From Pirellulales bacterium (lineage in GTDB: Bacteria; Planctomycetota; Planctomycetia; Pirellulales; UBA1268): a DNA stretch of 64,000 bases. Position numbers and translations under genes: made by a program. Positions 7,907 to 52,641 of the stretch are shown here, piece by piece. The DNA lies in assembly GCA_049695995.1 (NCBI GenBank), contig JBAVTF010000137.1, forward strand, positions 107 to 64,106, in the 5' to 3' direction. Under the pieces are notes generated by a model that had not been told where the DNA came from, searched no databases, and saw only the letters and a list, made by a program, of their open reading frames with translations. The first letter of the stretch is position 1; the number at the start of each line of letters is the position of its first letter.

Positions 7907-7995
7907 CGTACCCTGCCGACCATCCGCCGAGTGCGGGTGTCGGCCGCGCCTCGTGAGCCCCCAAGCGCCTCGGTTCACCCTCGATACACGCCACA

Positions 7996-8085
7996 CGGAG
8001 AGGGCGGGATTCGAACCCGCGGTCCAGCTTTTGACCGGACACGTCTTTAGCAAAGACGCGCATTCGACCGCTCTGCCACCTCTCC
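7996..8085 (-). tRNA. tRNA-Ser (anticodon GCU)
   Basis: The reverse complement reads GGAGAGGTGGCAGAGCGGTCGAATGCG..CGTCT-TTGCTAA-AGACG..long variable arm..GCGGGTTCGAATCCCGCCCTCTCCG. The cloverleaf folds with a 7-bp acceptor stem. CCA is not encoded. Confidence 0.9.
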
Positions 8086-8168
8086 TCGTTTTCCCAGGAA
8101 TCAACATGGACTCCGGGAAACCGCAGTCGCTCTATTCTGGACGCGCCTCCCCCGTCCCGCAAGGAGCC

Positions 8169-27212: not shown

Positions 27213-29669
27213 TCACTCGATCGGTTCGAGGGCGCCGTGGCCGAGGATGAACTTTCGGGTGCCGGCGGGGCCGGAGAAAATCACCGTGCCGACGGCACGG
27301 GGGCCGGTGCCGCTGATGCCGGCGATCACGCCCTCGCCGTATTCCGCATGTCGCACCCGCTGGCCCGTGTCGAACGACAGGGTTCGCGGCCCCTGCCCCG
27401 CCATGCGGGCGGCGAGATCGGCGGCCGTTTCGAACGCTGTCGGCCGCGACCGGCGATTCTCCCGCGGCCGTGACTGGAGCCGCTCCACCTCGTCGGCATC
27501 TTCGACTTCGAGCACGAGGCCATCCTGACGGGCCACGCTCGTGCCGGCCGGGCGACGGTGGCCCGCGACCTGCGCGTCGTCGGCGAACTCGTCGCCACGG
27601 GCCGCATCGCCGAAGGGATCGAAGACGACGCTTCCGCGCGGTGGCGCCTCGGCGCCCGTCACTTCCGTTTCGCTGCCGGTCATCTCCGTGAGAAAGAGGC
27701 TCGGTGCCGCGATCCGGCGGGTGCCGCGGTAGTCGCGGATCCGCCCGCAGCTCACGCAGACCTCTTCCTTGCCGCGGGTGATGCCCACGAACACGAGCCG
27801 CCGCTCCTCCTCCAATTGATCGGGATGGTCGAGGCTGCGTTCGTGCGGGAGGATGCCGTCTTCGAGCGCCACGAGATAGACGACGGGAAACTCGAGCCCC
27901 TTCGCGGCATGGAAGGTCATCAGGGCCACTCGGTCGCCCGAGGGATCCCAGGCGTCCGTGTCGGCGACGAGCGCGGTCATCTCGAGGAAGCCGCCCAGTG
28001 CATCGCCGTCATCAAACGGCGCCGTCGCCCGCGTGGCTGCGTCATCGTCGAACTGACGGGCAGCCGTGAGGAGTTCCTCGACGTTCGCCAGGCGATCCTG
28101 CCCCTCCTCGTCCTCCTCCCCCTCCTCCTCGAGCATCCGCCGATAGCCGCTCTTGTCGAGTACGGCCGCGAGGAGCGGTGCCACTCCCGGCTCACGCCCG
28201 TGCAGGGCGGTGAGCTCGGCATGAAGGCGGGCGAAATCGACGAGGGCCTTCGAGGCCCGCTTCGAGATGCCCTCGATCTGCGCCGCCTCGGCCGCGGCCT
28301 CCACCACCGGCAGCCGCCGCTGTTCGGCCCAGGCCGCGAGCCGGTCGAGCGACTGCCGGCCGATGCCCCGGGTCGGCACGTTGATCACCCGGTAGAGTGC
28401 CTCGTCGTCACGTGGGTTACGGATCAGCCGCAGCCAGGCCACGACGTCGCGCACCTCCCGCCGCTTGAAGAACTCGAGTCCGCGGACAAGCTGATAGGGA
28501 ATGCCACGGCCGCGGAGTGCCACTTCGAGCGACCGCGACAGGGCGTTGGTTCGGAACAGGATCGCGAAGTCGCGGGGCCACCGCCGCCCGGTCGCGATGG
28601 CCGCAGCGATCTCCGTAGCGACGCGGTCGGCCTCGTCGTGCCCGGAGGCATCGAGCACGATCCGCACCGGCGCGCCCGGCGGCGCGTCGGTGACGAGCCG
28701 CTTCGGCTTCCGCCGTGAGTTGTGGGCGATGAGGCGGTCGGCCGTGCCGAGGATGTTGGCGGTGCTGCGATAGTTGTGCTCGAGCTTCACCACGGTCGCG
28801 GCCGGATAGTCTCGCTCGAACTCGAGGATGTTGCGGATGCTCGCCCCGCGCCAGCCGTAGATCGCCTGGTCGGGATCACCGGTCACGGCGAGATGCGGGT
28901 GGTCGATCGACAGGCCGCGCAGGATGCAATACTGCACGGCATTGGTGTCTTGATACTCGTCGACGAGGATGAACCGGTGCCGGGCATCGAGCTGCGCCCG
29001 CAGGTCCGGGGCATCGGCCAGCAGCCGAGCCACGTGCACCAAGAGATCGTCGAAGTCGACCGCGTTCGACTGGAGAAGAAGTTCCTGGTAGACCGGCCAG
29101 ACGCGGCGGGCCACCTCCTCGACCGGACGGCCCCAGCGGGGCTCGAACGTCTCGGGCGTCAGCAGGTCGTTCTTGGCGCGGCTGATCACTCCCGCCAGCC
29201 GGTCGACCGGCACGTGTGACAGGGCAAGGCCGAGTTTTTTTGCCGCCCGCTTGAGCACCGCGCCGGCGTCGTCGGGATCGAGAATCGAGTAGTCGCTGGT
29301 GAGGCCGACGAGCCGCGCATGGCGGCGCAAGAGGCGGGCGGCGAAGCGGTGGAACGTGCCCATCTCGACTGGCTGCGGCCCGACCATTTCCGTCAGCCTG
29401 CGACGCATCTCGTCGGCCGCCTTGTTGGTGAACGAGAGGGCCACGATCTGGTCGGGGCGGATGCCTGCGGAGATAAGATGGGCCACGCGATGCGTGACCA
29501 CCCGCGTCTTGCCGCTGCCAGGGCCTGCTAGCACGAGCAGCGGTCCCTCGACGTGCGTGGCCGCTCGCCGCTGGCTGTCATTGAGGCTGTCGAACGAGGA
29601 AAGCTGCACGATTTGCGGGCCCGAAACAGGCGGTACGGGCCGCGCGGACCACGCCGCGTCGAGAATCAT
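27213..29669 (-). CDS. uvrD: ATP-dependent DNA helicase UvrD/PcrA family
   Basis: 818 aa. SF1 motifs LVLAGPGSGKTRV, VDEYQDTN, GDPDQAIYGWRGA, YRST, TFHAAKGLEFPVV and VGITRG. C-terminal Tudor-like segment RVRHAEYGEGVI. Confidence 0.9.
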   Translation of the reverse strand: MILDAAWSARPVPPVSGPQIVQLSSFDSLNDSQRRAATHVEGPLLVLAGPGSGKTRVVTHRVAHLISAGIRPDQIVALSFTNKAADEMRRRLTEMVGPQPVEMGTFHRFAARLLRRHARLVGLTSDYSILDPDDAGAVLKRAAKKLGLALSHVPVDRLAGVISRAKNDLLTPETFEPRWGRPVEEVARRVWPVYQELLLQSNAVDFDDLLVHVARLLADAPDLRAQLDARHRFILVDEYQDTNAVQYCILRGLSIDHPHLAVTGDPDQAIYGWRGASIRNILEFERDYPAATVVKLEHNYRSTANILGTADRLIAHNSRRKPKRLVTDAPPGAPVRIVLDASGHDEADRVATEIAAAIATGRRWPRDFAILFRTNALSRSLEVALRGRGIPYQLVRGLEFFKRREVRDVVAWLRLIRNPRDDEALYRVINVPTRGIGRQSLDRLAAWAEQRRLPVVEAAAEAAQIEGISKRASKALVDFARLHAELTALHGREPGVAPLLAAVLDKSGYRRMLEEEGEEDEEGQDRLANVEELLTAARQFDDDAATRATAPFDDGDALGGFLEMTALVADTDAWDPSGDRVALMTFHAAKGLEFPVVYLVALEDGILPHERSLDHPDQLEEERRLVFVGITRGKEEVCVSCGRIRDYRGTRRIAAPSLFLTEMTGSETEVTGAEAPPRGSVVFDPFGDAARGDEFADDAQVAGHRRPAGTSVARQDGLVLEVEDADEVERLQSRPRENRRSRPTAFETAADLAARMAGQGPRTLSFDTGQRVRHAEYGEGVIAGISGTGPRAVGTVIFSGPAGTRKFILGHGALEPIE

Positions 29670-29703
29670 GCCACCGCACGAGTGGCCCGTTTTCCGTCGA
29701 CTT

Positions 29704-29712
29704 GATTATATT
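29704..29712 (+). promoter_or_regulatory. AT-rich GATTATATT box (candidate -10 region)
   Basis: In the 112-nt divergent gap between uvrD and the alpha-CTD-like gene. The identical 9-mer recurs at 55978-55986 in another divergent gap. AT-rich 9-mers look rare in this GC-rich window. Confidence 0.25.
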
Positions 29713-29781
29713 CCCATTGAGCTGATCTCGGCCGAACACGGCCGACGGCCCACCACACACACGACGCGAGGGAGGGACCCC

Positions 29782-30087
29782 ATGCCGCGGATACCGTACA
29801 AGAACCTGATGCAGTCGGATGAAATGGCGGAGAAACTCGAGATGAGCACGGCCGAGATCGGCCTGTCGGTCCGCACGACCAACTGCCTGGAGGAGCGGGG
29901 CATCTTCACCGTGCACGACCTGCTCAACTGCACCCGGGCCGACCTGCTCTCGATCTCGAATTTCGGAGAGAAGACGCTGGAAGAGGTCTACAAGTCCCTG
30001 GAGAAGATCGGGTTCTTTCGGTCCCAGCAGTCGGCGTCGTCTCTCGCGATGAACACCACGGCGACGGAACCCGTCGGCCAGGCATGA
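29782..30087 (+). CDS. standalone RNA polymerase alpha-subunit C-terminal-domain-like protein
   Basis: 101 aa. GGAGGGA at 29771-29777. The segment EIGLSVRTTNCLEERGIFTVHDLLNCTRADLLSISNFGEKTLEEVYKSLEKIG matches the alpha-CTD helix-hairpin-helix pattern (LSVRxxNCL...L...NFGxKSL.E). No alpha-NTD is present. Confidence 0.7.
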   Translation: MPRIPYKNLMQSDEMAEKLEMSTAEIGLSVRTTNCLEERGIFTVHDLLNCTRADLLSISNFGEKTLEEVYKSLEKIGFFRSQQSASSLAMNTTATEPVGQA

Positions 30088-30105
30088 CCTGAAGCGGGAG
30101 CGATC

Positions 30106-31452
30106 GTGAGGCTGCCCCGCATCTTCGGCAAAAAACGTGGCCACCGGCGCACGGGCTCCAAGGCATGGGGTTCCTTTGGCGACGGCGTGTTCCATGGAGC
30201 GCTCGTCTGCGCCGGGGTCGTGTTCGGGGCGCTCTTGATCTCCGGCGTCGCCGTTCCGGAGTGGCGGATCAATCACGACTTCGTCGAGTCGCGCGGCCGC
30301 GTGCTTGGCAAGGGCCTCGTGAAGCGGACCATCGACGACCCGCTCGCCGCGGCCAGCACGACGTGGCGGTCCACGCTGCATGTGCGGTACGACGTCGCCG
30401 GGACGACCCGCGAGGCCTGGACGCGCTCCCAGCCATCGACAGGCGTGCCCGACCGTGCCGCCGCAGCGGCACGGCTTACCAACTGGAAACTCGGCAGCGA
30501 GGTGCCGCTCTGGTACGACCCGGCGGATCCCACGGCCGTCGTGCTCGAGCGCGGCTACAACTGGTGGATGTGGCTGCTCGCGCTCCTCTTGCCGGGAGCG
30601 CTGATCGCGTTCGGTGGCGCGGGGCTCACGCGGGCGGTGCGGCGGTGGGGCCGATCCGAAGAGGCGCTGGCGGCGGCAACCGGCATCCCGGGCCTGCTCG
30701 GTCCGCGGGCACCGGTTTCCACCTCAGCGGCTGATCTCGCCGGACTGCCCTCCTGCGACGACCTCGTCAACTCGCCGGGTACTCAATTGCGGTATCGACT
30801 GCCCTTGGAAAGTCCGGAGAACTGGACGCTTCTCGGGCTCGGGCTGTTTGCGACTTTCTGGAATGCCGTGCTGCTCGTGCTCGCCGTAGGGGCCGGCCTC
30901 GAATTCACGAGCGGCCGAGTTGACTGGCTGCTCATCGCGTTGCTCGTGCCCTTCATCGCTGTGGGTGGCGCGGCGATCGCGCTGGTTGTCCGGGGGTTGG
31001 TGCTCTCCGCCGCGGTGGGCACGACCCAACTGGAGATTTCCGATCACCCGCTCGTGCCGGGTGGCACGTACGACGTGCTCCTCGCGCAGGGGGGATCAGG
31101 CAGGATCCATCGGCTGACACTCGCGCTCGAACTCGTCGAGCAGGCGACGTTTCGCCAGGGCACCGACGCCCGCACCGAGAGCCTCGTCGTCTGGAGGCGG
31201 CAGTTCGACACCTGGTCCGATGTGGCGCTCCTGCCCGGCGCTCGGTTCGAGGTGCGGTCGACGATCACGATCCCGAGTGATGCCATGCATTCGTTCGCCT
31301 CCGAACACAACGCTGTTCGCTGGCGGCTCGTCGTGCACGGAGTGCCTGCCCGCTGGCCGGCGTTTCTGCGGGTGTTTCCCCTGGCGGTCTATCCCGGCCT
31401 CACCTCGAGCCCTCGCGAAATGCCGCGGCCAGTGCGGAAGGTGATGGCATGA
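30106..31452 (+). CDS. multi-TM protein: N-terminal DUF3592-like domain plus C-terminal arrestin/Spo0M-like beta-sandwich
   Basis: GTG 30106 preceded by GGGAG. A TM helix, then a roughly 100-aa segment ending LWYDPADP (DUF3592-like), then 3 more TM helices. The C-terminal region is LEISDHPLVPGGTYDVLL...IPSDAMHSFASEHNAVRWRLVVHG. Confidence 0.65.
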   Translation: MRLPRIFGKKRGHRRTGSKAWGSFGDGVFHGALVCAGVVFGALLISGVAVPEWRINHDFVESRGRVLGKGLVKRTIDDPLAAASTTWRSTLHVRYDVAGTTREAWTRSQPSTGVPDRAAAAARLTNWKLGSEVPLWYDPADPTAVVLERGYNWWMWLLALLLPGALIAFGGAGLTRAVRRWGRSEEALAAATGIPGLLGPRAPVSTSAADLAGLPSCDDLVNSPGTQLRYRLPLESPENWTLLGLGLFATFWNAVLLVLAVGAGLEFTSGRVDWLLIALLVPFIAVGGAAIALVVRGLVLSAAVGTTQLEISDHPLVPGGTYDVLLAQGGSGRIHRLTLALELVEQATFRQGTDARTESLVVWRRQFDTWSDVALLPGARFEVRSTITIPSDAMHSFASEHNAVRWRLVVHGVPARWPAFLRVFPLAVYPGLTSSPREMPRPVRKVMA

Positions 31453-31862
31453 GTACCGGGGGAGAGTTGCCACGGCATGGGCCGCACATCGACGTGCAGT
31501 TCGATCACCCTGACCGGGGCTATGCACCGGGTGACTCGCTGCGGGTGCGATATGACGTGTATGGCCTTGGGAGCGAAAGACTGCGGGCCGTGGAGCACTC
31601 GGTGCTCTGGTACACGGAAGGCAAGGGCGAAGAGGATCTCTGGGTTCATTTCTTCGAGCGGACAGCCAAGCCCGACGCGACGGGCGCTTTCACGGTCATG
31701 CTGCCGCAGAGCCCGCTGTCGTACGAGGGGGTAATCGTGAAGATCCGCTGGTGCGCCCGCGTGCGGATCTTCTTCCAGGGCGGCAGGGACTTCGTGTCGG
31801 AGCATGTGTTCGACGTCGGCCGGGTGCCGCCCGCCCGCATGCCCCAGGCAGCCACGTCGTGA
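31449..31862 (+). CDS. small arrestin/Spo0M-like beta-sandwich protein
   Basis: ATG overlaps the upstream stop (ATGA). IDVQFDHPDRGYAPGDSLRVRYDV...LPQSPLSYEGVIVKIRWCARVRIF repeats the logic of the upstream C-terminal domain. Confidence 0.6.
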   Translation: MSTGGELPRHGPHIDVQFDHPDRGYAPGDSLRVRYDVYGLGSERLRAVEHSVLWYTEGKGEEDLWVHFFERTAKPDATGAFTVMLPQSPLSYEGVIVKIRWCARVRIFFQGGRDFVSEHVFDVGRVPPARMPQAATS

Positions 31863-32464
31863 GCAGCCGCCTGCCACGGCCGGTTCCCAATCCATTCGCC
31901 ACGCGGCATACACAGCCTGGGTGCGTGCCACCGCTCGACGCCGCCGGCCAGCCTGTCGATCTGGCCGGCTTGCTCTCCCGACTGCGGCAGCACGGCCGGT
32001 GCGGCGCCATCGTCGGCCCGCATGGGAGCGGCAAGACGAACCTGCTCGCCCACCTCGCGGCGGCACTGGCTGCTCACGAAGGCAGCCTCGGACCGCTCCG
32101 CGCCCGATCCCTTCGGGACAGACTCGGCATCCTGCGATCCATCCTTACGGCGGCCGCCGGCACGGTCGTCTGCATCGACAGCTGGGAGCAGCTGGGGCCG
32201 GCAGGCCGGCTCGCCGTGCGGGCGCTGGCAGCGTGGCGGAGGTGTGGGCTCCTGGTCACCAGCCATGTACCCACGGCGCTGCCGACGCTCGTGGAGTGTT
32301 GCACCAGCCCGGAAATTCTCGCCGCGGTCATCGCCGTGCTCCCCGATGCGGGCGGCAGTATCGCCCAGGCCGATCTCGAAGACGCGTTTACCCGCCACGG
32401 CGGCAACCTCCGCGACGCCCTCGCGGATCTCTACGACCGCTTCGAATCCCGCCGCTTCCACTAA
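31859..32464 (+). CDS. minimal P-loop NTPase (AAA-like)
   Basis: GTG 31859 overlaps the upstream stop (GTGA). Walker A GPHGSGKTN, Walker-B-like VVCIDSWEQL, and then LLVTSH. About 201 aa. Confidence 0.6.
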   Translation: MSSRLPRPVPNPFATRHTQPGCVPPLDAAGQPVDLAGLLSRLRQHGRCGAIVGPHGSGKTNLLAHLAAALAAHEGSLGPLRARSLRDRLGILRSILTAAAGTVVCIDSWEQLGPAGRLAVRALAAWRRCGLLVTSHVPTALPTLVECCTSPEILAAVIAVLPDAGGSIAQADLEDAFTRHGGNLRDALADLYDRFESRRFH

Positions 32465-32494
32465 AAGCCCCTGGGCGCAAGCCGGGGAATCTTT

Positions 32495-32535
32495 CCGCCG
32501 CGAGATCCCCTCGCTGGCGCTCTGGGCTTATGTGT
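32495..32535 (-). repeat. short intergenic repeat, family 3, copy 2 (inverted)
   Basis: GCCGCGAGATCCCCTCGCTGGCGCTCTGGGCTTATGT. Flanked by imperfect direct repeats AAAGCCCCTGGGCGCAAGCCGGGG (32463-) and AAAGCCCCCAGGCACGAGTCGGGGG (32546-). Confidence 0.6.
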
Positions 32536-32774
32536 ATCCCCCATGAAAGCCCCCAGGCACGAGTCGGGGGATCCAGCCGCGCAAGCGTCGGCAACTCCGA
32601 ATCGAATTCCGCTGGTACCAGCCGTAACGGTCGTAGGGGCCGGCTGCGTCGAATTCATGATTTGCAGCTGATTTTTTCCGGCGAGCCGCGCCGTCGCGCA
32701 ACCTAGGCTAGGAATGTCCGCAATCCGCCCGGAGGCCGCCGCCGGATCGCTGGATCGAATCGGAGGAGAGAGCG

Positions 32775-33872
32775 ATGAAGACGCTTCGACTGATCACCGC
32801 GATGCTGCTGGCGACCGCCTGTTCGGTGGCAATGCCCGGCGCGTGCGTCGCCCAGGCACAGTGCTGCCTCAGCGAGCTATTCGCCGGCTGCGGCACATGC
32901 TTCAAAAAGGCGCCGGTGTACGCCGTGGCCCCCGTCATGGCTCCGGTGGCAGCCCCGGTCGTGGCGCCAGTGCCGGCCCCGCCGCCTCCGGTGATGGTGC
33001 CGATGCAACAGACGAGCTACGTGCCGGAAACCACCTACCGCACGCAGTATCAGTGCGTGCCCGTCACCACCTACAAGCCGTCGTGCGAGATCGACCCCTG
33101 CACGGGCTGCCCCCAGGAGTGCATGCAGCCGGTCACGCAGTACGTGCAGCAGGCCGTAAATGTGCCGGTGACGCAGTACCGTGCCGTCACGACCACGAAG
33201 TACGTACAGATGCAGCCCGGCTACGCTGCGCCGACAGGCTATGCCGCCCCCGCCATGACCACCGCACCTGCCCCGGCCGCCAGCCCCTTCGCGGCGCCGA
33301 TCCAGACGACGCCCCAGGCATGGGGTGCGGCCGGCGCCGACGTGCCCCAGCAGCTGATCCCTGGTCAGCCCGCAGCAGCACCCCCGGCCCTCCCGCCGGC
33401 CGGCTACGCCACACCCACGTTTCAGCAGCCCCAGCCGATCGTCCCGCAGAGTGGCACGACGCTCATGCCCGCAGCTCCCTCCCAGCAGCAGCTGCAGGCC
33501 ACGCAGCCGCCGGCTCTGGCCCCAACCCCGTCGCTGAAGCCAATCCCCGATCTGCAGAAGACCTACGGCAACGGAAATGGCAATGACGTGCCTGCGACGC
33601 AGGCCCCGGCTGCGCCGCAGTTGCCGGCTGCCCCGTACGCCCCCATCAATCCTCCGGCCCTTACGCCGGCGCCAAGCGGCACCGCGCCGGCCCAGCCCTC
33701 GGCCACCGGTACCAACGGCATGCCGGTACTCCCCGGCTCCGGCCCCGGCGCCGCCACCCGCGCCTTCCCCCGTCTGCTCGAGCCGACGAGCCACACCACC
33801 TCGTGGCAGCCCGCCACGGTGGGCCCGCGCTACCCGACCGCCGCCCTGCCGACCACGCTCGGCACCCGATAA
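32775..33872 (+). CDS. secreted Pro/Ala/Gln-rich protein with Cys-rich N-terminal module
   Basis: GGAGGAGAG RBS. Signal peptide MKTLRLITAMLLATACSVA. Cys cluster (QCCLSELFAGCGTCF, CEIDPCTGCPQEC). Repeated VP(V)T(T/Q)Y(K/R) motifs. Then about 230 aa of P/A/Q low-complexity sequence. Confidence 0.65.
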   Translation: MKTLRLITAMLLATACSVAMPGACVAQAQCCLSELFAGCGTCFKKAPVYAVAPVMAPVAAPVVAPVPAPPPPVMVPMQQTSYVPETTYRTQYQCVPVTTYKPSCEIDPCTGCPQECMQPVTQYVQQAVNVPVTQYRAVTTTKYVQMQPGYAAPTGYAAPAMTTAPAPAASPFAAPIQTTPQAWGAAGADVPQQLIPGQPAAAPPALPPAGYATPTFQQPQPIVPQSGTTLMPAAPSQQQLQATQPPALAPTPSLKPIPDLQKTYGNGNGNDVPATQAPAAPQLPAAPYAPINPPALTPAPSGTAPAQPSATGTNGMPVLPGSGPGAATRAFPRLLEPTSHTTSWQPATVGPRYPTAALPTTLGTR

Positions 33873-38347: not shown

Positions 38348-42688
<4,341 letters not shown>

Positions 42689-42691
42689 GGG

Positions 42692-45600
42692 TCAGATCCT
42701 CCTCTTTTCCAGTTGCATATTCAGAGCCAGACCACGGATTTCGTTGGTGAGCACGTCGAAGCTGGCCGGAGTGCCGGCCTCGAGCGTGTTCTCCCCCTTC
42801 ACCATGCTCTCGTAGATCTTCGTCCGCCCTTCCACGTCGTCGCTCTTCACGGTGAGCAACTCCTGGAGGATGTAGGCGGCACCGTAGGCCTCAAGCGCCC
42901 ACACTTCCATCTCGCCGAACCGCTGGCCGCCGAAGCGGGCCTTGCCGCCCAGCGGCTGCTGCGTGATGAGCGAGTAGGGGCCGGTCGAGCGGGCGTGCAC
43001 CTTGTCATCGACAAGGTGGTGGAGCTTCAGCATGTAGATGTAGCCCACGGTCGTTTCCTGCTCGAGACGCTCGCCCGTGCGGCCGTCATGGAGCTGAGCC
43101 TTGCCGTGCTTTGGCAGACCGGCATCGGCCAGCACCTTGTTGATGTCTTCCTCGCTCGCCCCGTCGAACACCGGCGTGATTGCCTGGAAGCCGAGCAGTT
43201 TGCCGGCCCAGCCGAGGTGCGTTTCCAAAATCTGGCCCACGTTCATGCGGCTCGGCACGCCCAGCGGGTTGAGCAGGATCTGCACCGGCGTGCCGTCAGC
43301 GAGGAACGGCATGTCTTCCTTGGGCAGGATCTTGGCGATCACGCCCTTGTTGCCGTGGCGGCCAGCCATCTTGTCACCCACGGAGATCACCCGCTTGGCG
43401 GCGACGTAGACCTTCACCATCTGAAGCACGCCGGGCCGCAGCTCGTCGCCACGCTTCATGCTGTTGAGACGACGGTCGCGAGCGTCGATCGCATCCTCGA
43501 CCGCGGGCCACATGGTCTTCACCAGTTTTTCGACGTCGGCCTTGCGCTGTGGGGAGCGGAGATCGAGCTCGTCGGGCTTGAACTGCGCGGCCCGCTCGGC
43601 CACGGCCTTGTGATCCTGATTACGCACCAGCGGACTGCCGTCGGCTGCGGTGAGCGGCTTCTGAATCACCTTCTCGATCTCGGAGACGAGGGCTCCGAAC
43701 GCCTCGGCGATCCGCAGGTTGCCCTCGCTCTCGGCCTCCTTAAGCTGCTTCTGAAACTCCCGCCGCTCCTCCTCTGAGAGGCTCATCTGCCGAGAGAACT
43801 TCTCGGTCGCGGTGACGATGCCTTCAACGCCCGACGGTACCTCCAGCGAGTCGTTCTTCACGTCCTCGCCGGCGCGACCGAAGATCGCGTGCAGCAGTTT
43901 CTCTTCCGGAGTCAACTCCGTCTTGCTCTTCGGCGAGACCTTGCCGACGAGGATGTCGCCCGGCCGCACGTACGTGCCGATGCGAACGATGCCACTCTCG
44001 TCGAGGTTGTGCAGGGCCCGCTCGCCCACGTTTGGGATGTCGCGGGTGAACTCCTCGCGGCCGAGCTTGGTGTCGCGGATCTCGATGTCGTACTCCTCGA
44101 TGTGGATCGAAGTGTAGACGTCGTCTTCCACCAGCTCCTCGCTGATGATGATCGCGTCCTCGAAGTTGAATCCGTCCCAGGCCATGAAGCCCACGAGCAC
44201 GTTGCGGCCGAGCGCCAGTTCCCCCTTGTAGGTGGCGGCGCCGTCGGCGAGCACCTCGCCCTTTTCGACCTTCTGGCCAATCTGCACGATCGGTTTCTGG
44301 TTTTGACAGGTCCGCTCGTTGAGACCGACGTACTTCCGCAGCTTATAGGTCTCGACCGGGCCCGAACCCGAGGCCGGGCCGACCTCAATCGTTTCGGCAT
44401 CGACGTAGGTCACCACGCCCTTGCGGGCCGCCCGGACGATGAGACCTGAATTGGCAGCGACGTCCCGCTCCATGCCCGTTCCCACGATCGGCGGCTCCGT
44501 CACGAGCAGCGGCACGGCCTGCCGCTGCATGTTGGAACCCATGAGCGCGCGATTGGCGTCGTCGTGCTCGAGAAAGGGAATGAGGCCGGCAGACACGCCC
44601 ACCATCTGGCTGGGAGCCACGTCGATGTATTCGATGTTCTCGGCGGGCACGAGCACGAAATCGCCGCGGTAGCGGGCGATGATGGTCTCGCCCACGAGTT
44701 TGCCGTCCACGACCGTCGCATCGGCCGGGGCCAGATGCGCCTCGTGCTCTTCGTCGGCCCGCAGCCAGACGACGTCGTCGGTGAGCTTGCTCTTGGACAC
44801 CTTTCGATACGGCGTCACGAGGAAGCCATACGAGTCGACGCCCGAGTAGATCGCCATGCTCGAGATCAGACCGATGTTCGTGCCTTCAGGCGTCTCGATC
44901 GGGCAGATCCGGCCGTAGTGCGAGATGTGCACGTCGCGCACCTCGAAGCCGGCCCGCTTGCGATTGAGGCCGCCAGGACCGAGAGCCGAGAGCCGCCGCT
45001 CGTGGGTGAGCATCGAGAGCGGATTCGTCTGGTCGACCACCTGTGAGAGCTCGCCGCGGCCGAAGAAATACTCGATGGCCGCCGAGATGCTCTTGGGGTT
45101 GATCAGCGTCCGCGGCGACATCTCAGCCACGTCCTTGAGACTCATCCGCTCCTGCACCGTGCGCCGGAGCTTGAGGAAACCCTTCCGCAGTTCGTCGCTT
45201 GCCAATTCGTCGATCGTCCGCAGCCGCCGGTTGCCGAGGTGGTCGATGTCGTCGACCTCGCCCTCGCCCTCGCCGTCGCTGAGCTGCAGCATGTACCTGA
45301 TCGCGGCGATCAGATCCTCGGCCCGCAGCGTCATTTCCGTCTCGGGCACGTTGAGGCCGAGCTTCCGATTGATGCGGAAGCGACCCACGCGGCCGAGTCG
45401 GTAGCGGTTGGCGTCGTTGAACTTCTCGTCGAACAGCGCCCGAGCCTTGTCGAGAGCCGGGGGATTGCCCGGCCGCAGCCGCTGATAGATCCGCACGAGC
45501 GCGTCTTCATGGCTCGGCGAGACGCCCGTGCGCCGTCGTGACTCTTCGGCGTCCTCTCGGAGGCTGTTCATAATGAGGGGCAGTTTCTGCTCCTGCATCA

Positions 45601-46450
45601 CTTCGACGGCCTTGAGGCCCGATGTTGAAATCAGCTCGGCCTGATCGTGCGTGATCTTGCAGCCGGCATCGACGATGATCTCACCGACACGCTCGCTGCC
45701 CTTCGGGTAGACGATGTCGTCGACAGCGATCTTGCCCTCGAGCTTCGGCACGCTCCGTGCGCCGACGACCTTCTCGACCGTGGTCTTGTAGAACAGCTTG
45801 AGGATTTCGGAATCCCGGGCGTACCTCGGGTCCATGGCCCGGAGGAGCGTCAGCGCCGAGAACTTGCCGCTCTGGTCGATACGGACCTGGAGCGTGTCCT
45901 TCTTCGAAACGTTGAGCTCGATCCAGCTGCCACGCTCCGGAATGATTCGGCAATTGTGTGTCTTGCGGTCCGCCGACTCCGTGTCGGCCACGAAGTCGAT
46001 GCCGGGGGAGCGATGCAACTGGCTCACGACCACCCGCTCGGCACCGTTGATGATGAACTCACCCCCGCCGAGCATGATCGGGATGTCGCCGAGATAGACC
46101 TCCTCCTCGATCGGCTGCTCACGGGTGAGCCGCAGCCACACGCGGAGCGGCCGCCCGTAGGTCAGCCGCAACTGACGGCACTCGTCGGGATCGTAGCGCG
46201 GCTTGCCAAGCTCGTAGCGCAGGTATTCGAGCTTGACCGTGCGATCGTAGCTCTCGACCGGAAAGATCTCTCGCAGCACGCCCTCGATGCCGTGATCCTT
46301 CCGCTTCTGAGGCGGCACGTCGTACTGGAGAAAGGCGTCGTAGAACCGGGTTTGAATCTCGGTCAGGTCGGGAATGTGATGACTGGCGCGGCGACTGCCG
46401 AAATGACGAACCTCGGTGGGCTGAAGGCGGCGGACGGCGCGGGTTGCCAT
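42692..46450 (-). CDS. rpoB: DNA-directed RNA polymerase subunit beta
   Basis: 1252 aa. The Rif-region-like [30 protein letters not shown], plus GRHGNKGVI and PSRMNVGQ. Confidence 0.98.
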
Positions 46451-46707
46451 GTAGAAAAGGCTCCTAAAGCGTTGCGATGGCAGGGGCGACTGCTGGCGCG
46501 AGACTGGCGGCGAGGTTCACTCTTCGAGCCGACGACTGACGACCACTCAGTCGACACGACAGGAAACGAACCCGAACAAACGACAAGCACGTTCGACCGC
46601 AGGCGGCACGGCCTGGGAAGAACAGAGAGGGCTGGGAAACCGGGAACAGACAGACAGGGCAGGCAAGCGAACCGCAAATACTATACCATTTCCGGACAAA
46701 CCCGCCA

Positions 46708-46734
46708 GCCTCCCGCCCAAACGGGCGGGGAGGC
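46708..46734 (-). terminator. hairpin in the rplL-rpoB spacer (attenuator/terminator)
   Basis: GCCTCCCGCCC-AAAC-GGGCGGGGAGGC, about 32 nt after the rplL stop on the minus strand, followed by CTGGCGGGTTTGTCC. The position matches the known rplL-rpoB attenuator of other bacteria. Confidence 0.55.
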
Positions 46735-46765
46735 AGGGGCGCAACGGACTCGGCAGAGAGGCGGG

Positions 46766-47188
46766 CTACTTGATCGACACCTTCGCCTTGGCTTCCTCGA
46801 GCTCCTTCTTGAGCTTCTCGGCGTCGGCCTTCGAGATGCCTTCCTTCACCTTGGCGGGGCAAGCCTCGACCATGTCCTTGGCCTCCTTCAGGCCAAGGCC
46901 GGTCGCAGCGCGGACCACCTTGATGACGCCGATCTTGTTGTCGCCGAAGTTCTCGAGGATCACGTCGAACTCCGTCTTCTCGGCGGCAGCCTCGGCACCA
47001 CCGGCAGCGGCACCACCGGCAGCAGGTGCGGCCATCATCACCGCGCCGCCAGCGGCGGGCTTGATGCCGTGGACTTCGTCGAGGTAGTCGGACAGCTCCT
47101 TCGCAGCCTTGAGCGTCAGGCCGACGATCTTGTCGCCGAGTTGCTTGGTCTCGTTGGAGAATTCACGGGTTGCTTCAGCCGTTGCCAT
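46766..47188 (-). CDS. rplL: 50S ribosomal protein L7/L12
   Basis: 140 aa. Ala/Gly hinge and the C-terminal domain [24 protein letters not shown]. Confidence 0.95.
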
Positions 47189-47373
47189 CGCTCGAGGTCC
47201 TTTCCCTTCGAAAAAATGCTGCCGCCGGGTGACGGCGACCGCGGTAAAGTGGTGTGGTTTGTGGAGATGGAGTGCCTGGGGACCGTATTGGCCCGCCCTG
47301 CGGCGAGCCTTCCTTCATACCATCTGATTCGCCGGAGTGAAGCCCGTCCCAGAAAATTCCGGGCGCCAGCCAC

Positions 47374-47925
47374 TCAGGCGGCCGACTCCGCCTCGCCGCC
47401 GGCCTTTTCCAGGTCGTCTGCCCGCTGGGAAATCTGGCCGGCGAGGGTGCCCCCGGCCGACACGATCTGCCCGGCAAGCATGCCTCCCAGCGAGGAAATC
47501 TGACCGGAAAGAATCGAGAGTTGCTCGAGCCGCGTCGGCCACTTGGCGACCTTTTTCACATCACCGGCGTCGAGACGTGCACCGTCGAGGGCACCACCGC
47601 GGCACTCGAAGCCCTCGAAGTCCTTGACGCCAGCGAGACGGTCAAGCTCCTTCGCCAGATCGACGACGTCGTCGCCGCCCCAGGCGATCGCCAGCATGCC
47701 CTCGGCCTGCTGGAACGCGGGCTCCAGCGGGGTGCCGAGCATGGCCCGCCGGGCCAGGCTGTTCTTGACGAGCTGCAGACTGATCCGCTTCTTCCGCAAC
47801 GCCTGGCGGAGCTGCGTGGTCTTTTGGGCATCGAGCCTGCCGAGACTCACAACGATCACCTCGCCGACGCCCTGGAGGCGGCCCTTGAGGTCATCGACCA
47901 GCATATTTTTGATGAGCTTGCTCAT
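47374..47925 (-). CDS. rplJ: 50S ribosomal protein L10
   Basis: 183 aa. The N-terminus KLIKNMLVDDLKGRL is L10-like. The C-terminal tail has three GQI repeats. Confidence 0.9.
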   Translation of the reverse strand: MSKLIKNMLVDDLKGRLQGVGEVIVVSLGRLDAQKTTQLRQALRKKRISLQLVKNSLARRAMLGTPLEPAFQQAEGMLAIAWGGDDVVDLAKELDRLAGVKDFEGFECRGGALDGARLDAGDVKKVAKWPTRLEQLSILSGQISSLGGMLAGQIVSAGGTLAGQISQRADDLEKAGGEAESAA

Positions 47926-47962
47926 GAGTGGGAACTTTCAGCGAGAGAGGCGTTGGATAGTG

Positions 47963-48649
47963 TCAGGCGGCAACCATGATGCCGGGGGTCATCGTGCCGC
48001 AGATCGAGATGCTCTTCACGTACTGGCCACGCACGCTCGACGGCTGCAGCGACAGGATGTGATCAATGAATGCCCGGACGTTGTCGACGAGCTTTCCCGA
48101 ATCGAAGCTGAACTTGCCGACCACTGCGTGCACGATGCCCGTGGGATCGTTACGAAACTCGACCTTGCCGGCCTTGTACTCGCTCACGGTCTTCTTGATG
48201 TCGGCCGTGACCGTTCCCGCACGCGGACTGGGCATCAGGCCGCGGGGACCGAGCACTTTGCCGAGCGGTCCGACGAGACCCATCATGTCGGGTGCCGCGA
48301 TGCAGACGTCAAAGTCGGTCCAGCCTTCCTTGATCTTCTTGGCAAGATCGTCCGCTCCGACCTCTTCGGCGCCTGCCGCCTTCGCGTCGTCGGCCAGGTT
48401 GCCCTTCGCGAACACGACCACCCGCTTCGACTTGCCGATGCCGTGAGGCAGCACGAGCGAGCCACGGATGATCTGATCCGCCTGCTTCGGGTCGATGCCC
48501 AGCCGCATGTGGATCTCGACCGTCTGGTCGAACTTGGTCGGAGGAAACTTCTTCAGGGCCGCGACGGCCTCGGCAAGAGACAAAGGGGCCTCGATCTGCG
48601 GCTTCACGGCGAGCATGGCCCGCATGCGCTTGGTGCTGGCGACGGTCAT
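47963..48649 (-). CDS. rplA: 50S ribosomal protein L1
   Basis: 228 aa. [34 protein letters not shown]. Confidence 0.95.
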
Positions 48650-48700
48650 GAGTCAGGGTCTTTCGCGGAATGAATGGAACGTGAACGGTGATCGGAGGGC

Positions 48701-49126
48701 TCAGCCCTCCACGGTGATGCCCATGCTGCGGGCGGTGCCTTCGACCATGCGGCGGGCATGCTCGCCGTCACGGGCATTGAGGTCGGCCCCCTTGAGCCGC
48801 ACGATCTCGTCAACCTGCGCCTTGGTGACCTTGCCGACCTTGTCGCGGTTCGGCACGCCGGACCCCTTGGCCAGGCCGGCAGCCTTCTTCAAGAGGGCCG
48901 CCGCCGGCGGGCTCTTCGTGATGAAGTCGAAGGAACGGTCGTTGTAGACGGTGACCACCACCGGGATCGGCATGCCAGCCGCCTCGCGGGTGCGGTCGTT
49001 GAACTGCTGGACAAACTGGCCGAGGTTGATACCGAACCGGCCAAGCGAGGTGCCCACCGGCGGCGCCGGGGTGGCCTGACCACCTGGCACCTGGAATTTC
49101 GCCTGTCCAACCATCTGTTTCGCCAT
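48701..49126 (-). CDS. rplK: 50S ribosomal protein L11
   Basis: 141 aa. [27 protein letters not shown] and [20 protein letters not shown]. Confidence 0.95.
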
Positions 49127-49166
49127 TGCAACAATCCTCTCGTCAGCAAGTCGCTAGGTGTCGGGT

Positions 49167-49937
49167 TCAGACCGATTCGATCTGCCAGTATTCAATATCC
49201 ACGGGGGTCGAGCGGCCAAAGATGCTGAGCATCACCGTCACGCGGCCGTTGGCCTCGTCGATCTGCTCGACCTCGCCCTCGAAGTTCTCGAAGGTGCCCT
49301 CGTTGATCTTCACGCGGTCGCCCTTCTTGAAGTTGATCTTCAGCCGCGGAGCCTCGGCAGTCTTCTCCTCGGCCTTGTTGAGCAGCTTGGCCACGTCCTG
49401 AGGGAGCATGGGGCTCGGCCGGCCGGCGGATCCGGTGAAGTCACCAATGCCGCCGGTCTCCCGCACGAGGTACCACGTCTCGTCGTTCAAGATCATGTTC
49501 ACCAGGATGTATCCCGGATAGAGCTTGCGAGAAACGACGCGTTTTTTGCCCCCTTTGAACTCAGTAACCTGCTCCTTCGGCACGACGACGTCGCCGAAGA
49601 ACCGGTCGAGGCCCTGGAGGGAAATCCGGCGGAGAAGAGTCTCGCGGATCGAATCCTCCCGGTTGCTCTGCACCTTGAGGATGTACCACTGCTTGTCGCC
49701 CACCGCGGGCGCGCCCGCGGCTTCGGCGGCGACCTCGACAGGCGTGGCGTTCTCGTCACCGGCGAACGGATCTTCGAGTTCAGCAGGGGTGCCGTCGTCC
49801 TCGTCCTCGGCGGCGTCGGCCACCACCGGCGGCGATGCATCTGCGGCGGCCCCATCAGCCGAGGCCGGGTGCGGCAGGCCAGCAGCCTCGGGAGCCGCCC
49901 GTTCACCGTCCATCGGATCGTCGAATGTTGCAGTCAT
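49167..49937 (-). CDS. nusG: transcription termination/antitermination factor NusG with acidic N-terminal extension
   Basis: The NGN domain starts at KQWYILKVQSNRE. KOW segment GDRVKINEGTFENFEGEVEQI. About 80 aa of Asp/Glu/Ala/Pro-rich N-extension. Confidence 0.9.
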   Translation of the reverse strand: MTATFDDPMDGERAAPEAAGLPHPASADGAAADASPPVVADAAEDEDDGTPAELEDPFAGDENATPVEVAAEAAGAPAVGDKQWYILKVQSNREDSIRETLLRRISLQGLDRFFGDVVVPKEQVTEFKGGKKRVVSRKLYPGYILVNMILNDETWYLVRETGGIGDFTGSAGRPSPMLPQDVAKLLNKAEEKTAEAPRLKINFKKGDRVKINEGTFENFEGEVEQIDEANGRVTVMLSIFGRSTPVDIEYWQIESV

Positions 49938-49953
49938 GTCGCTATTCCGGTCG

Positions 49954-50466
49954 TCAGGTGATCTGCAGCACGTACCGCAGGATGAACCACCAGAAGAGAT
50001 CGTACCCAGCCAAAATCGCCGCCAACGCGAAGATCAAAAAGATAATCACGGCGGAACTGCGGGCCACCTCGCCCCCGCTTGGCCACGACACCTTCGCCAT
50101 TTCCGCCTCGACCGCGATCAGGAAGTCGGCGAAGCGCGGCACGTTGACCAGCCGGTAGCAGAACCAGAGCCCCGCCGCGAGCAGCAGGCCCGGCACCAGA
50201 AACCGCACCACACCGATGTCGCCGAACGCCGAAAGTCCCGGTGCCGCGTCGGCAGGGAGGTCGCCGGTCGGCAGCGCACCGGTGCCCGCGAACCAGAGCG
50301 GCAGTAGCTGGGCGAGTCGCCATACACCGATCCCGACGATCAAGGCCAGGGCGGCGAACGTCAACTGACGCGCGAGCCGCCCCTGCGTGGGCTTGTAGAC
50401 CGAGGCGCTGAGGAACTCTCCCCAGATACTGCCGCCGCGGACGTGATTCTCTTGTGTGCTTGCCAT
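49954..50466 (-). CDS. secE: preprotein translocase subunit SecE (3-TM form)
   Basis: Start at MASTQENH. The C-terminal part FLIAVEAEMAKVSWPSGGEVARSSAVIIFLIFALAAIL is the conserved SecE core. Position between tRNA-Trp and nusG. Confidence 0.8.
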   Translation of the reverse strand: MASTQENHVRGGSIWGEFLSASVYKPTQGRLARQLTFAALALIVGIGVWRLAQLLPLWFAGTGALPTGDLPADAAPGLSAFGDIGVVRFLVPGLLLAAGLWFCYRLVNVPRFADFLIAVEAEMAKVSWPSGGEVARSSAVIIFLIFALAAILAGYDLFWWFILRYVLQIT

Positions 50467-50539
50467 CTTGCGCTCCGTCGCCGGACTGCCCGCCCGCGGG
50501 GCCACGGCGCGCCTGGTGACGCGCCGCGGCAACTGCGTG

Positions 50540-50612
50540 CAGGGGCGGCGGGGATCGAACTCGCAACCTCTGGTTTTGGAGACCAGCGCTCTGCCAGTTG
50601 AGCTACGCCCCT
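50540..50612 (-). tRNA. tRNA-Trp (anticodon CCA)
   Basis: The reverse complement reads AGGGGCGTAGCTCAACTGGCAGAGCG-CTGGT-CTCCAAA-ACCAG-AGGTT-GCGAGTTCGATCCCCGC-CGCCCCT-G. One A-C mismatch in the T stem. Confidence 0.9.
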
Positions 50613-50618
50613 GTGTTC

Positions 50619-50657
50619 GCCGGGCTTCGAGTCAACCTCGAAGCCCGGCTTGTTTTA
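50619..50657 (+). terminator. 13-bp perfect hairpin plus T-tract, oriented as a plus-strand intrinsic terminator
   Basis: GCCGGGCTTCGAG (50619-50631), loop TCAAC, CTCGAAGCCCGGC (50637-50649), then TTGTTTTA. It sits in the tuf/tRNA-Trp spacer, whose genes are on the minus strand. Confidence 0.5.
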
Positions 50658-50687
50658 ACCGCTCCGGGGCCGGGACCCCGGACTCAT

Positions 50688-51887
<1,200 letters not shown>

Positions 51888-52005
51888 GCTATCTCCTGCT
51901 TTCTCCTCGGAAAGAAAAACCGAACGTGTGGTTGCGAACTGCTCGTTTGAAACTGACCGTCGTCGGGAGCCCAGGGCCGTCAGGCCGCCATGCCACCCGC
52001 GGAAG

Positions 52006-52078
52006 AGCTGCTGAAGGGACTTGAACCCTTGACCTCGTCCTTACCAAGGACGTGCTCTACCAACTGAGCTACAGCAGC
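52006..52078 (-). tRNA. tRNA-Thr (anticodon GGU)
   Basis: The reverse complement reads GCTGCTGTAGCTCAGTTGGTAGAGCA-CGTCC-TTGGTAA-GGACG-AGGTC-AAGGGTTCAAGTCCCTT-CAGCAGC-T. Confidence 0.9.
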
Positions 52079-52165
52079 AATGTTGACTCGATGGGCACCG
52101 AAATGACGTGACTGAAAAACTGGGGAGTGAACGATATGGTCGAATGTGTGCGGAACGGCTGGAAA

Positions 52166-52236
52166 AGCGGGTAGAGGGAATCGAACCCTCGTCTTTAGCT
52201 TGGAAGGCTATTGCTCTACCATTGAGCTACACCCGC
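52166..52236 (-). tRNA. tRNA-Gly (anticodon UCC)
   Basis: The reverse complement reads GCGGGTGTAGCTCAATGGTAGAGCA-ATAGC-CTTCCAA-GCTAA-AGAC-GAGGGTTCGATTCCCTC-TACCCGC-T. 71 nt. Confidence 0.9.
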
Positions 52237-52273
52237 ACGGGGCGACACACAGACACGCGGAAGGGGACCTGAC

Positions 52274-52355
52274 TGGGGAGTGCAGGATTCGAACCTGCGA
52301 AGGCATAGCCATCAGATTTACAGTCTGACCCCTTTGACCGCTCGGGAAACTCCCC
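52274..52355 (-). tRNA. tRNA-Tyr (anticodon GUA)
   Basis: The reverse complement reads GGGGAGTTTCCCGAGCGGTCAAAGGGG-TCAGA-CTGTAAA-TCTGA-long variable arm-GCAGGTTCGAATCCTGC-ACTCCCC-A. 82 nt. Confidence 0.9.
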
Positions 52356-52568
52356 GCTGTGTTGTGGTGCCACTGGGCTCGTGTTCGGGTCGGCGATGGG
52401 TTCTCTGCGAGGATGGTGGATGGTGTGAGGTGAATGATCGGTTTGCGAACGTATTCGAGCCGTCTCGAGGTCACCGCGTCGCGCCAGCAGGCCGCGCCGC
52501 CGCATCCCAGCCCCGCCCATGCACAGGCTTCCGCGAGGAAGCCCGAAACCACGGGCGGCGTCGTGCTG

Positions 52569-52641
52569 AGCTAGCGGCGGGAGTTGAACCCGCAACCTGC
52601 TGATTACAAATCAGCTGCTCTGCCAATTGAGCTACGCTAGC
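52569..52641 (-). tRNA. tRNA-Thr (anticodon UGU)
   Basis: The reverse complement reads GCTAGCGTAGCTCAATTGGCAGAGCA-GCTGA-TTTGTAA-TCAGC-AGGTT-GCGGGTTCAACTCCCGC-CGCTAGC-T. Confidence 0.9.

Follow-up and report, generated by a model that had tools for sequence, protein, structure and literature searches.

Organization of the four-gene locus

A stretch of 64,000 nucleotides (nt) from the Pirellulales bacterium assembly GCA_049695995.1 (contig JBAVTF010000137.1, positions 107 to 64,106 of the forward strand), here called the window and numbered from its first nucleotide, was analyzed at a locus of four same-strand genes, g1 to g4, that appears to encode an arrestin-like unit split over two polypeptides and anchored in the membrane. 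The first gene, g1 (29782-30087, + strand), encodes a free-standing protein of 101 amino acids (aa) made up of a domain like the C-terminal domain of the RNA polymerase alpha subunit (alpha-CTD), a helix-hairpin-helix (HhH) module. A gap of 18 nt (30088-30105), which holds a GGGAG ribosome-binding site, separates g1 from g2 (30106-31452, + strand), a gene with a GTG start whose 448-aa product is a membrane protein with four predicted transmembrane (TM) helices. The product of g3 (31449-31862, + strand) is a 137-aa arrestin-like beta-sandwich, the presumed second lobe of the unit, and that of g4 (31859-32464, + strand), which again starts with GTG, is a minimal P-loop nucleoside triphosphatase (NTPase) of 201 aa. 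The ATG of g3 at 31449 overlaps the TGA of g2 at 31450-31452 in the tetranucleotide ATGA, and the GTG of g4 at 31859 overlaps the TGA of g3 at 31860-31862 in GTGA. The four open reading frames, the 18-nt gap and both overlaps were as described in an initial annotation that had been made from the sequence alone. Genomes and metagenomes of planctomycetes contain hundreds of homologues of g1 to g4, with identities of 40-99%, and on sequence grounds these are four real genes.

Predicted arrestin-like lobes of g2 and g3

The g2 protein was predicted to run from a basic N-terminus (RLPRFFGKKRGHRRTGS) through TM1, a DUF3592 beta-domain, TM2, a low-confidence linker, TM3 and TM4 into an arrestin-like domain, with AlphaFold2 placing the helices at residues 16-46, 153-180, 237-262 and 274-304. 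DUF3592 (PF12158) matched residues 84-151 with 42.6 bits against a cutoff of 25.3 and was found in all 52 of 52 homologues, which, together with the four helices, confirmed the initial assignment of g2 as a four-TM protein with a DUF3592-like N-terminal domain. The beta-domain between TM1 and TM2 spans residues of about 60-151 (30283-30558, + strand; local pLDDT, the predicted local distance difference test, about 76-92). By the positive-inside rule it would lie outside, in the periplasm, with the N-terminus, the linker and the C-terminal domain in the cytoplasm. Typical DUF3592 proteins are short and have two TM segments, and no function is known for the family; in g2 the unit is the front part of a larger four-TM, arrestin-bearing protein. 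Profile comparison indicates that DUF3592 is an optional insert of g2, as the match skips it in remote g2 homologues (loci L161 and L074). Just before TM3, in the linker that is presumably cytoplasmic, lies an NSPGTxLRYRLP motif (residues 222-233; 30769-30804, + strand) in which S223, P224, G225, T226, R231, L232 and P233 are invariant among the 52 homologues, and the remote homologue of L161 has an akin sequence, TPGEKLRFQL. The TM1-DUF3592-TM2 part (30106-30650, residues 1-180) was also seen to resemble the beta4 protein of the BK channel hSlo1 (Foldseek about 2e-6, about 200 columns), and weak Pfam CaKB matches occurred in 15 of the 52 g2 homologues; the two TM helices may account for most of this likeness.

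The C-terminal domain of g2 was modeled as a beta-sandwich of residues about 305-428 (31018-31389, + strand), which is the first lobe by its position in fused homologues. When it was compared by Foldseek with the PDB, the matches were the N-lobe of ARRDC3 (3e-9) and Spo0M (1.7e-8), and also VPS26 and beta-arrestin, with a probability of 1.0; the TM-score against the N-domain of TXNIP was up to 0.74 when normalized to the target. The g3 model (pLDDT 83.5; predicted TM-score, pTM, 0.74) had Spo0M as its top match (9e-7; TM-score 0.61, query-normalized), followed by ARRDC3, beta-arrestin and TXNIP, again with a probability of 1.0. All of these fold matches rest on AlphaFold2 models, with a local pLDDT of about 80-95 for the g2 C-terminal domain and g3. 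As modeled, the C-terminal domain of g2 is an arrestin-fold lobe and g3 is a second one; the arrestin-like nature that had been proposed for both from short sequence patterns was thus borne out by structure prediction and by matches to the arrestin clan.

At the level of sequence, the C-terminal domain of g2 gave no Pfam arrestin or Spo0M match, either in the window or in its homologues, the window g3 had no Pfam match, and NCBIfam held no family for g3 or g2. Among 50 g3 homologues compared with Pfam, Arrestin_C was matched by 12 (best 1.8e-4), Arrestin_N by 10 (best 1.2e-5) and Vps26 by one, with the arrestin-clan (CL0135) scores shown for them falling below the cutoff (for example, 16.5 versus 27.7 bits). 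No Spo0M match appeared among the g3 homologues at E values up to 0.1, and a search of the PDB with the g3 profile returned nothing meaningful. The signature motifs of g3 are WYTEGKGEED (31608-31637) and SPLSYEG...IRWC.RVR. A charged hairpin loop, strongly conserved, was observed at equivalent places in the two lobes (WYTEGKGEED in g3; EQATFRQGTDxR, 31138-31170, in g2), and the models make these hairpins candidate functional surfaces.

A profile search of the full library with g3 returned 811 representative clusters, most of 130-190 aa. In three of the proteins found, P0368 (591 aa), P0461 (506 aa) and P0458 (721 aa), the g3 domain comes directly behind a membrane region and an arrestin domain of the g2 type in one chain, and two fragments (P0365 and P0449) join the g2 C-terminal domain to g3, so that there are five representative fused proteins in all. 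The fusion of P0461 was present on three independent contigs, and in locus L074 the g2 and g3 profile matches lie 10 nt apart inside one open reading frame; the contigs of P0450 and P0510 are too short to display flanking genes. Gene fusions are classic evidence that separate proteins act together. Because the natural fusions have the order g2 C-terminal domain and then g3, the two domains read as two lobes of one split unit, and the duplicated arrestin-like fold of the initial annotation is not a simple duplication. It is quite likely that g2 and g3 form one split, membrane-tethered arrestin-like unit.

Linkage and conservation of the genes

A genome scan with g2 yielded 71 loci in planctomycete metagenome-assembled genomes, labeled by their submitters as Pirellulales, Planctomycetaceae or Planctomycetia. 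All 71 had the same order, fcl-uvrD-g1-g2-g3-g4-Pro-rich gene-polX, which by itself may reflect no more than collinearity. A further 80, more distant loci came from scanning metagenomes with a diverse g3 alignment, for about 150 in all, and linkage was counted only in loci with enough flanking sequence. The g2 C-terminal domain was encoded upstream of g3 in 130 of 132 loci and g4 downstream of g3 in 116 of 118 (47/49 in the diverse metagenome set). Upstream, g1 was present in 87 of 92 loci (26/31 in the diverse set), and uvrD, on the opposite strand, in 64 of 67 (17/20). The downstream neighbors fared differently in the diverse set, with polX kept at 4 of 20 loci and the Pro-rich gene at 7 of 34. 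Since these neighbors are mostly lost in the diverse set, the linkage of g1 to g4 and uvrD goes beyond background synteny, and the genes stay together far outside the local lineage. An explanation of the synteny by lineage collinearity was rejected on the same grounds, namely, the decay of polX and the Pro-rich gene and the persistence of g1 to g4 and uvrD.

A 4-nt overlap of start and stop codons is possible at 122 of 146 g2/g3 junctions and at 94 of 139 g3/g4 junctions, and g3 homologues were absent from 72,556 plasmids and 50,697 phage records. By these counts, g2, g3 and g4 are a conserved chromosomal trio of Planctomycetota with predicted translational coupling. No overlap couples g1 to g2, the distance being 18 nt in the window and ranging from <30 to >300 nt elsewhere. 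Consequently, the tight four-gene operon that had been proposed holds for the coupling of g2, g3 and g4, which is kept across the roughly 150 loci, but g1 proved to be loosely attached. All four genes are found together in a remote locus, L160.

The P-loop protein g4

The P-loop protein announced by the initial annotation was recovered in g4 with its Walker A motif GPHGSGKT (residues 53-60; 32015-32038) and Walker B motif VVCIDSWE (residues 103-110; 32165-32188). An NPFATRHTQPG motif lies near the N-terminus (31889-31921), and both a LLVTSH strand and a C-terminal GGNLRDAL segment with an invariant R185 (32399-32422) are also kept. Across the family, the motifs read NPFxTRxxxPG, GPHGxGKT, hhhhD[GS][FW]E.L, LLVT[ST]H(R)P and, at the C-terminus, GN[LM]R[DE]..L..LYD; the residues invariant in the alignment are G53, H55, G56, G58, K59, D107, E110, T134, H136 and R185. 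The motifs are retained in the remote homologues of L074, L160, L161 and L162. By these motifs, g4 is a minimal P-loop NTPase marked by an N-terminal NPFxTRxxxPG peptide specific to the family and by a C-terminal arginine that is conserved.

Family matches of the window g4 stayed below the Pfam thresholds: AAA_16 scored 25 against 32.6 bits, nSTAND_NTPase5 17.8 against 34 and NACHT 16.3 against 26.7. Similar sub-threshold matches were obtained for 40, 32 and 23 of 46 family members, respectively, and the L162 homologue has a precomputed AAA_16 match. The g4 profile reached only the Walker A region of RecA and ABC proteins in the PDB, and NCBIfam gave nothing above cutoff. The Walker B and LLVT[ST]H(R)P motifs are presumably like the DGhDE and TSRP motifs of NACHT proteins, which we take as a lead only. 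With the STAND/NACHT/AAA_16 NTPases (of the NLR and Avs types), g4 has the Walker A form GxxGxGKT in common; it differs from them in its length of about 200 aa, its place in the core genome and not in a defense island, its unique NPFxTRxxxPG motif and its scores below the Pfam thresholds. It has no sensor repeats and no effector domain, ending at residue 201 after a helical segment, and its homologues are 194-268 aa long. In its sequence features, g4 looks like the core of a STAND protein that lacks the sensor and effector parts. We consider it likely that g4 belongs to the same machine as g2 and g3.

The sub-threshold likeness of g4 to nSTAND_NTPase5, NACHT and AAA_16, all of them families often met in conflict systems, also bears on a different explanation, in which the locus would serve in anti-phage defense or abortive infection, with a STAND-like g4 sensing infection and triggering g2 as a membrane effector. 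Membrane proteins are frequent as effectors, and g1 has a weak match to the HhH segment of the BREX protein PglW. PADLOC, however, gave no real match for any of the four proteins, that of g4 being at the level of Walker A and that of g1 only at the level of the PglW HhH segment. The locus is single copy and occupies the same core-genome place in virtually all related genomes or contigs that were inspected; the G+C content of the window is about 68%, and the locus shows no compositional anomaly; g3 is missing from the plasmid and phage collections; g4 lacks the sensor repeats and effector domain; and g1 is almost invariant, the opposite of arms-race diversification. Because PADLOC was negative, the core-genome position of the locus is fixed, g3 was not found in the plasmid or phage collections and g1 is nearly invariant, a defense island is unlikely, and the defense part of an earlier suggestion of a stress or defense module did not hold up. 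The defense system was rejected as a candidate on the fixed core-genome locus and the invariance of g1, and we regard it as very improbable.

The free-standing alpha-CTD protein g1

The assignment of g1 to the alpha-CTD, likewise first made from sequence patterns, was upheld by Pfam, in which RNA_pol_A_CTD (PF03118) matched with 69.4 bits against a cutoff of 23.8 (E, 2e-19) over profile positions 4-66 of 67. The alpha-CTD of Bacillus subtilis was matched with an E value of 6e-14, with about half of the aligned residues identical as read off the alignment. With an offset of +234 to the Escherichia coli numbering, R265, N268, C269, N294, G296 and K298 are kept in g1, whereas K297 is replaced by E and S299 by T; six of the eight alpha-CTD residues checked are therefore retained, DNA-contact positions among them. 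The DNA-contact residues of the "265 determinant" in E. coli, which we take to be R265, N268, N294, G296, K298 and S299, correspond to identical residues in g1 at R31, N34, N60, G62 and K64 and to T65 in place of S299, and these positions are invariant in 101 orthologues. Across the same 101 distinct orthologues, the core residues 17-80 are almost invariant and the C-terminal tail is variable. By these comparisons, g1 is a genuine alpha-CTD in which the residues for DNA contact are retained, and DNA binding is predicted.

Compared with the alpha-CTD of RpoA, g1 shares a full-length domain match, but it is free-standing at 101 aa, has E at the position of K297 and has G in place of E261 in the sigma-contact patch. 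It contains neither an alpha N-terminal domain nor a linker, and the NCBIfam rpoA models aligned to it only over their C-terminal positions 226-316, with 61 bits versus a cutoff of 228. Since the alpha N-terminal domain is lacking, g1 is not RpoA. An alpha subunit that had lost its CTD might still have it supplied in trans by g1, and the closeness of g1 to genuine alpha-CTDs and the extreme conservation of its core would suit such a split rpoA. Against that explanation, g1 has no N-terminal domain or linker by which to join the polymerase, and, to our knowledge, RpoA is full length in nearly all bacteria; we consider it extremely improbable. The rpoA gene does not lie within the window. Because the window holds a single copy of the alpha-CTD gene and none was found elsewhere in the flanks examined, the objection that g1 might be one of many dispersed paralogues does not apply locally.

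Putative transcription signals

Divergently from g1 runs a gene for a UvrD/PcrA-type helicase of 818 aa (27213-29669, - strand; Pfam UvrD-helicase 5e-78, UvrD_C 4e-61), and the 112 nt that the two genes share as an intergenic region (29670-29781, no strand assigned) contain invariant blocks. In an alignment of five orthologous loci, which are 79-92% identical in g2, these blocks were GAGTGGCCC.TTT at 29680-29695 and GATTATATT at 29704-29712. Since GATTATATT gives TATAAT when read on the uvrD (minus) strand and TATATT when read on the g1 (plus) strand, the region is probably the core of a bidirectional promoter, and the alignment suggests that the block probably serves as a -10 box. At the other end of the locus, directly after the g4 stop codon, lies a GC-rich stem-loop (32465-32529, + strand) with an RNA folding energy of -36.8 kcal/mol (z = -3.4 versus shuffled sequences), which is likely to mark the 3' end of the transcription unit. 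A consensus promoter and terminator scan of 29500-32900 returned nothing useful and called neither the GATTATATT box nor the stem-loop; as the stem-loop has no U-tract and the scan made no terminator call, its action as a terminator is only presumed.

A proposed membrane-anchored module

The following mechanism is proposed. The arrestin-like lobe of g2 and g3 would come together on the inner side of the cytoplasmic membrane as a two-lobed, arrestin-like clamp on which g4 would dock, and g4 would act as a nucleotide switch of the STAND/NACHT type, with the nucleoside triphosphate controlling binding or oligomerization. The periplasmic DUF3592 domain, where present, could supply an input from the envelope, and the clamp would bind and release a cytoplasmic client. 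In lineages that have it, the alpha-CTD-like g1 would be the most likely client or output, and its sequestration at the membrane would set its access to A/T-rich DNA or to partners of RNA polymerase, with the shared uvrD/g1 promoter as one possible target. Taken loosely, as a membrane-anchored split-arrestin/NTPase module for signaling or adaptor functions with g1 as its probable output, the whole chain is put forward tentatively and given somewhat less than an even chance; that g1 is the client or output of the g2-g3-g4 machine is, as a separate step, doubtful. The strict version, in which a minimal NACHT-like NTPase drives a two-lobed split arrestin to bind and let go of a free mimic of the RNA polymerase alpha-CTD, is improbable. 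Membrane sequestration of transcription factors, as in anti-sigma factors with extracytoplasmic function (ECF) sigma factors or in Mlc-PtsG, offers a functional analogy only, with no protein family in common; in both cases a membrane protein is encoded beside a small cytoplasmic protein directed at DNA or RNA polymerase.

Several findings weigh against the proposed module. The g2 model has a moderate mean pLDDT of 69.5, although its two beta-domains reach about 80-90. No significant similarity was found when the g3 and g2 profiles were compared by hhalign (probability 1.2%), and the "repeated signature" of the two proteins in the initial annotation consequently stands as a matter of structural position, the shared motifs occupying the same strand-loop-strand position in both models, and not as one of sequence. 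The family assignment of g4 relies on sub-threshold matches and on the apparent likeness of motifs, and the protein-protein contacts within the proposed machine are only inferred. Linkage of g1 also fails in places. It is locally absent in 5 of 92 loci, it is split from g2 by an opposite-strand PQQ-propeller gene in L067 (1744-3249), L074 (7355-7954) and L159 (6754-7449), and it lies more than 1 kb from g2 in L140, L146 and L151. In the remote loci L161 and L162, a short g2 without DUF3592 is followed by g3 and g4 with no g1 beside them, and one remote lineage has g2 and g3, separate or fused, without g4 or g1, behind a DEAD/DUF3516 helicase. Because the remote lineages vary the rest, the invariant core consists of the four-TM arrestin protein and the second lobe, nearly always with the NTPase. 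By this comparison of sequences, DUF3592 and g1 are add-ons typical of a large clade that includes the window.

The variable attachment of g1 fits an explanation in which two units lie side by side, with g1 as an ordinary small regulator that binds DNA and controls uvrD and/or its own transcript, and with g2, g3 and g4 forming a membrane adaptor or a housekeeping machine that serves some client other than g1. Candidate roles for such a machine are the turnover or sorting of membrane proteins, as in alpha-arrestins and VPS26, or a function in the envelope or in cell division. Where insertions occur (L140, L151, L159 and L074), g1 stays by uvrD at about 250-500 nt and g2 is 1-2.5 kb off; the uvrD/g1 intergenic region has invariant blocks that include the TATAAT box; and g2-g3-g4 occurs without g1 in L161 and L162 and in L091, L099, L126, L149 and L150. 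Korbel et al. are said to have found in 2004 that conserved divergent gene pairs are often a regulator and its target, and the structural neighbors ARRDC3, TXNIP and VPS26 are adaptors of membrane cargo. On the other side, g1 lies within 400 nt of g2 in 79 of the 87 g1-bearing loci and adjoins g2 even in L130 and L135, where uvrD is missing upstream; in the window, g1 and g2 are 18 nt apart and neither a promoter nor a terminator was seen in that interval; and no ubiquitin-like or protease partner is encoded nearby. We regard two separate units as the main alternative, possible but rather unlikely.

Relation to known arrestin-fold systems

The membrane-anchored split-arrestin/NTPase module, which is the reading preferred here, has partial counterparts among known arrestin-fold proteins. 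Spo0M is soluble and consists of one chain with a single arrestin-like domain, whereas here two lobes lie on two chains (or are fused), one of them is tethered to a four-TM protein and an NTPase gene is coupled to them. The g2 C-terminal domain and g3 have in common with Spo0M of Bacillus subtilis (PDB 5CL2) a prokaryotic beta-sandwich of the arrestin type and a P..S[FY]...[IV].W signature at the same structural position. Spo0M has been reported as an arrestin-clan family in bacteria and archaea, with Cyanobacteria, Actinobacteria, Proteobacteria and Firmicutes as the listed phyla and Planctomycetes not among them (PMC2515105). With the alpha-arrestins (ARRDC3 and TXNIP), VPS26 and the beta-arrestins, the module shares a two-lobe arrangement, which the fusions imply for it. 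Eukaryotic arrestins and VPS26 serve as membrane adaptors, each a single chain that is recruited to the membrane, while the lobes described here lie on separate polypeptides and are directly anchored in the membrane. In addition, no PPxY motifs, clathrin boxes or ubiquitin machinery were evident in the module, and its sequences stay below the Pfam thresholds.

No description of the g1-g4 combination was found in the family libraries and the literature covered by a limited search, in agreement with the initial annotation, which had not recognized it as a described system. We regard the module as a new kind of system in its architecture; every fold in it is already known, and the function proposed for it is hypothetical. 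Arrestin-fold proteins are central membrane adaptors in eukaryotes, and those of bacteria are known essentially from the soluble and poorly understood Spo0M. A split, membrane-anchored, two-lobed version that is hard-wired to an NTPase and kept under purifying selection across a whole bacterial class could be a tractable entry to the role of the arrestin fold in prokaryotes and to the origin of the two-lobe form. The free, near-invariant alpha-CTD beside uvrD suggests the idea of a detached RNA polymerase domain used as a regulator or decoy. If capture of the alpha-CTD by a split arrestin were true, it would amount to a new route from the envelope to transcription or transcription-coupled repair and to a version of the arrestin/VPS26 adaptor architecture that resides in a prokaryotic membrane. 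Planctomycetes are a phylum long discussed for eukaryote-like membrane biology.

Genomic surroundings

The surroundings of the locus are those of a housekeeping region. Its upstream neighbors are gmd, fcl and the divergent uvrD, and downstream follow a gene for a Pro/Cys-rich secreted protein, genes for PolX and an FGE-sulfatase-type protein, and then rpoC, rpoB and tuf; tRNA genes cluster between the last two and beyond. The four genes thus lie between gmd/fcl/uvrD and polX, about 6 kb from rpoC/rpoB. The conserved divergent uvrD was missing from the initial annotation. A second kind of helicase was seen to adjoin the module on the contigs of P0458 and P0479 (JGI sample 3300047160), where the g2-g3 pair or fusion lies directly downstream, on the same strand, of a gene for a 770-aa DEAD/Helicase_C/DUF3516 helicase. 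In L162, a PQQ_2 gene lies just upstream of the short g2.

The Pro/Cys-rich gene after g4 (32775-33872) has a signal-peptide-like N-terminus and no Pfam family. By single-sequence search it was found after g4 in 57 of 58 close genomes and in 7 of 34 diverse metagenome loci, and a comparable Cys/Pro-rich gene lies downstream of g4 in L067. This gene could be a fifth member with loose linkage, or the similarity may be merely one of low complexity.

Farther off in the window, ARAGORN called a permuted tmRNA at 7634-8089 (tag DDAHRSPAP) overlapping a tRNA-Ser (7996-8085); because Rfam reports a tRNA only at this place and no tmRNA, the call is probably a false positive. The rpoC (38348-42688, - strand), rpoB (42692-46450, - strand) and tuf (50688-51887, - strand) genes and five tRNA genes form one block at 38348-52641, and the alpha-CTD-like g1 lies about 8 kb from rpoBC. 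The G+C content of this block is about 0.62-0.65, versus about 0.68-0.70 elsewhere in the window.

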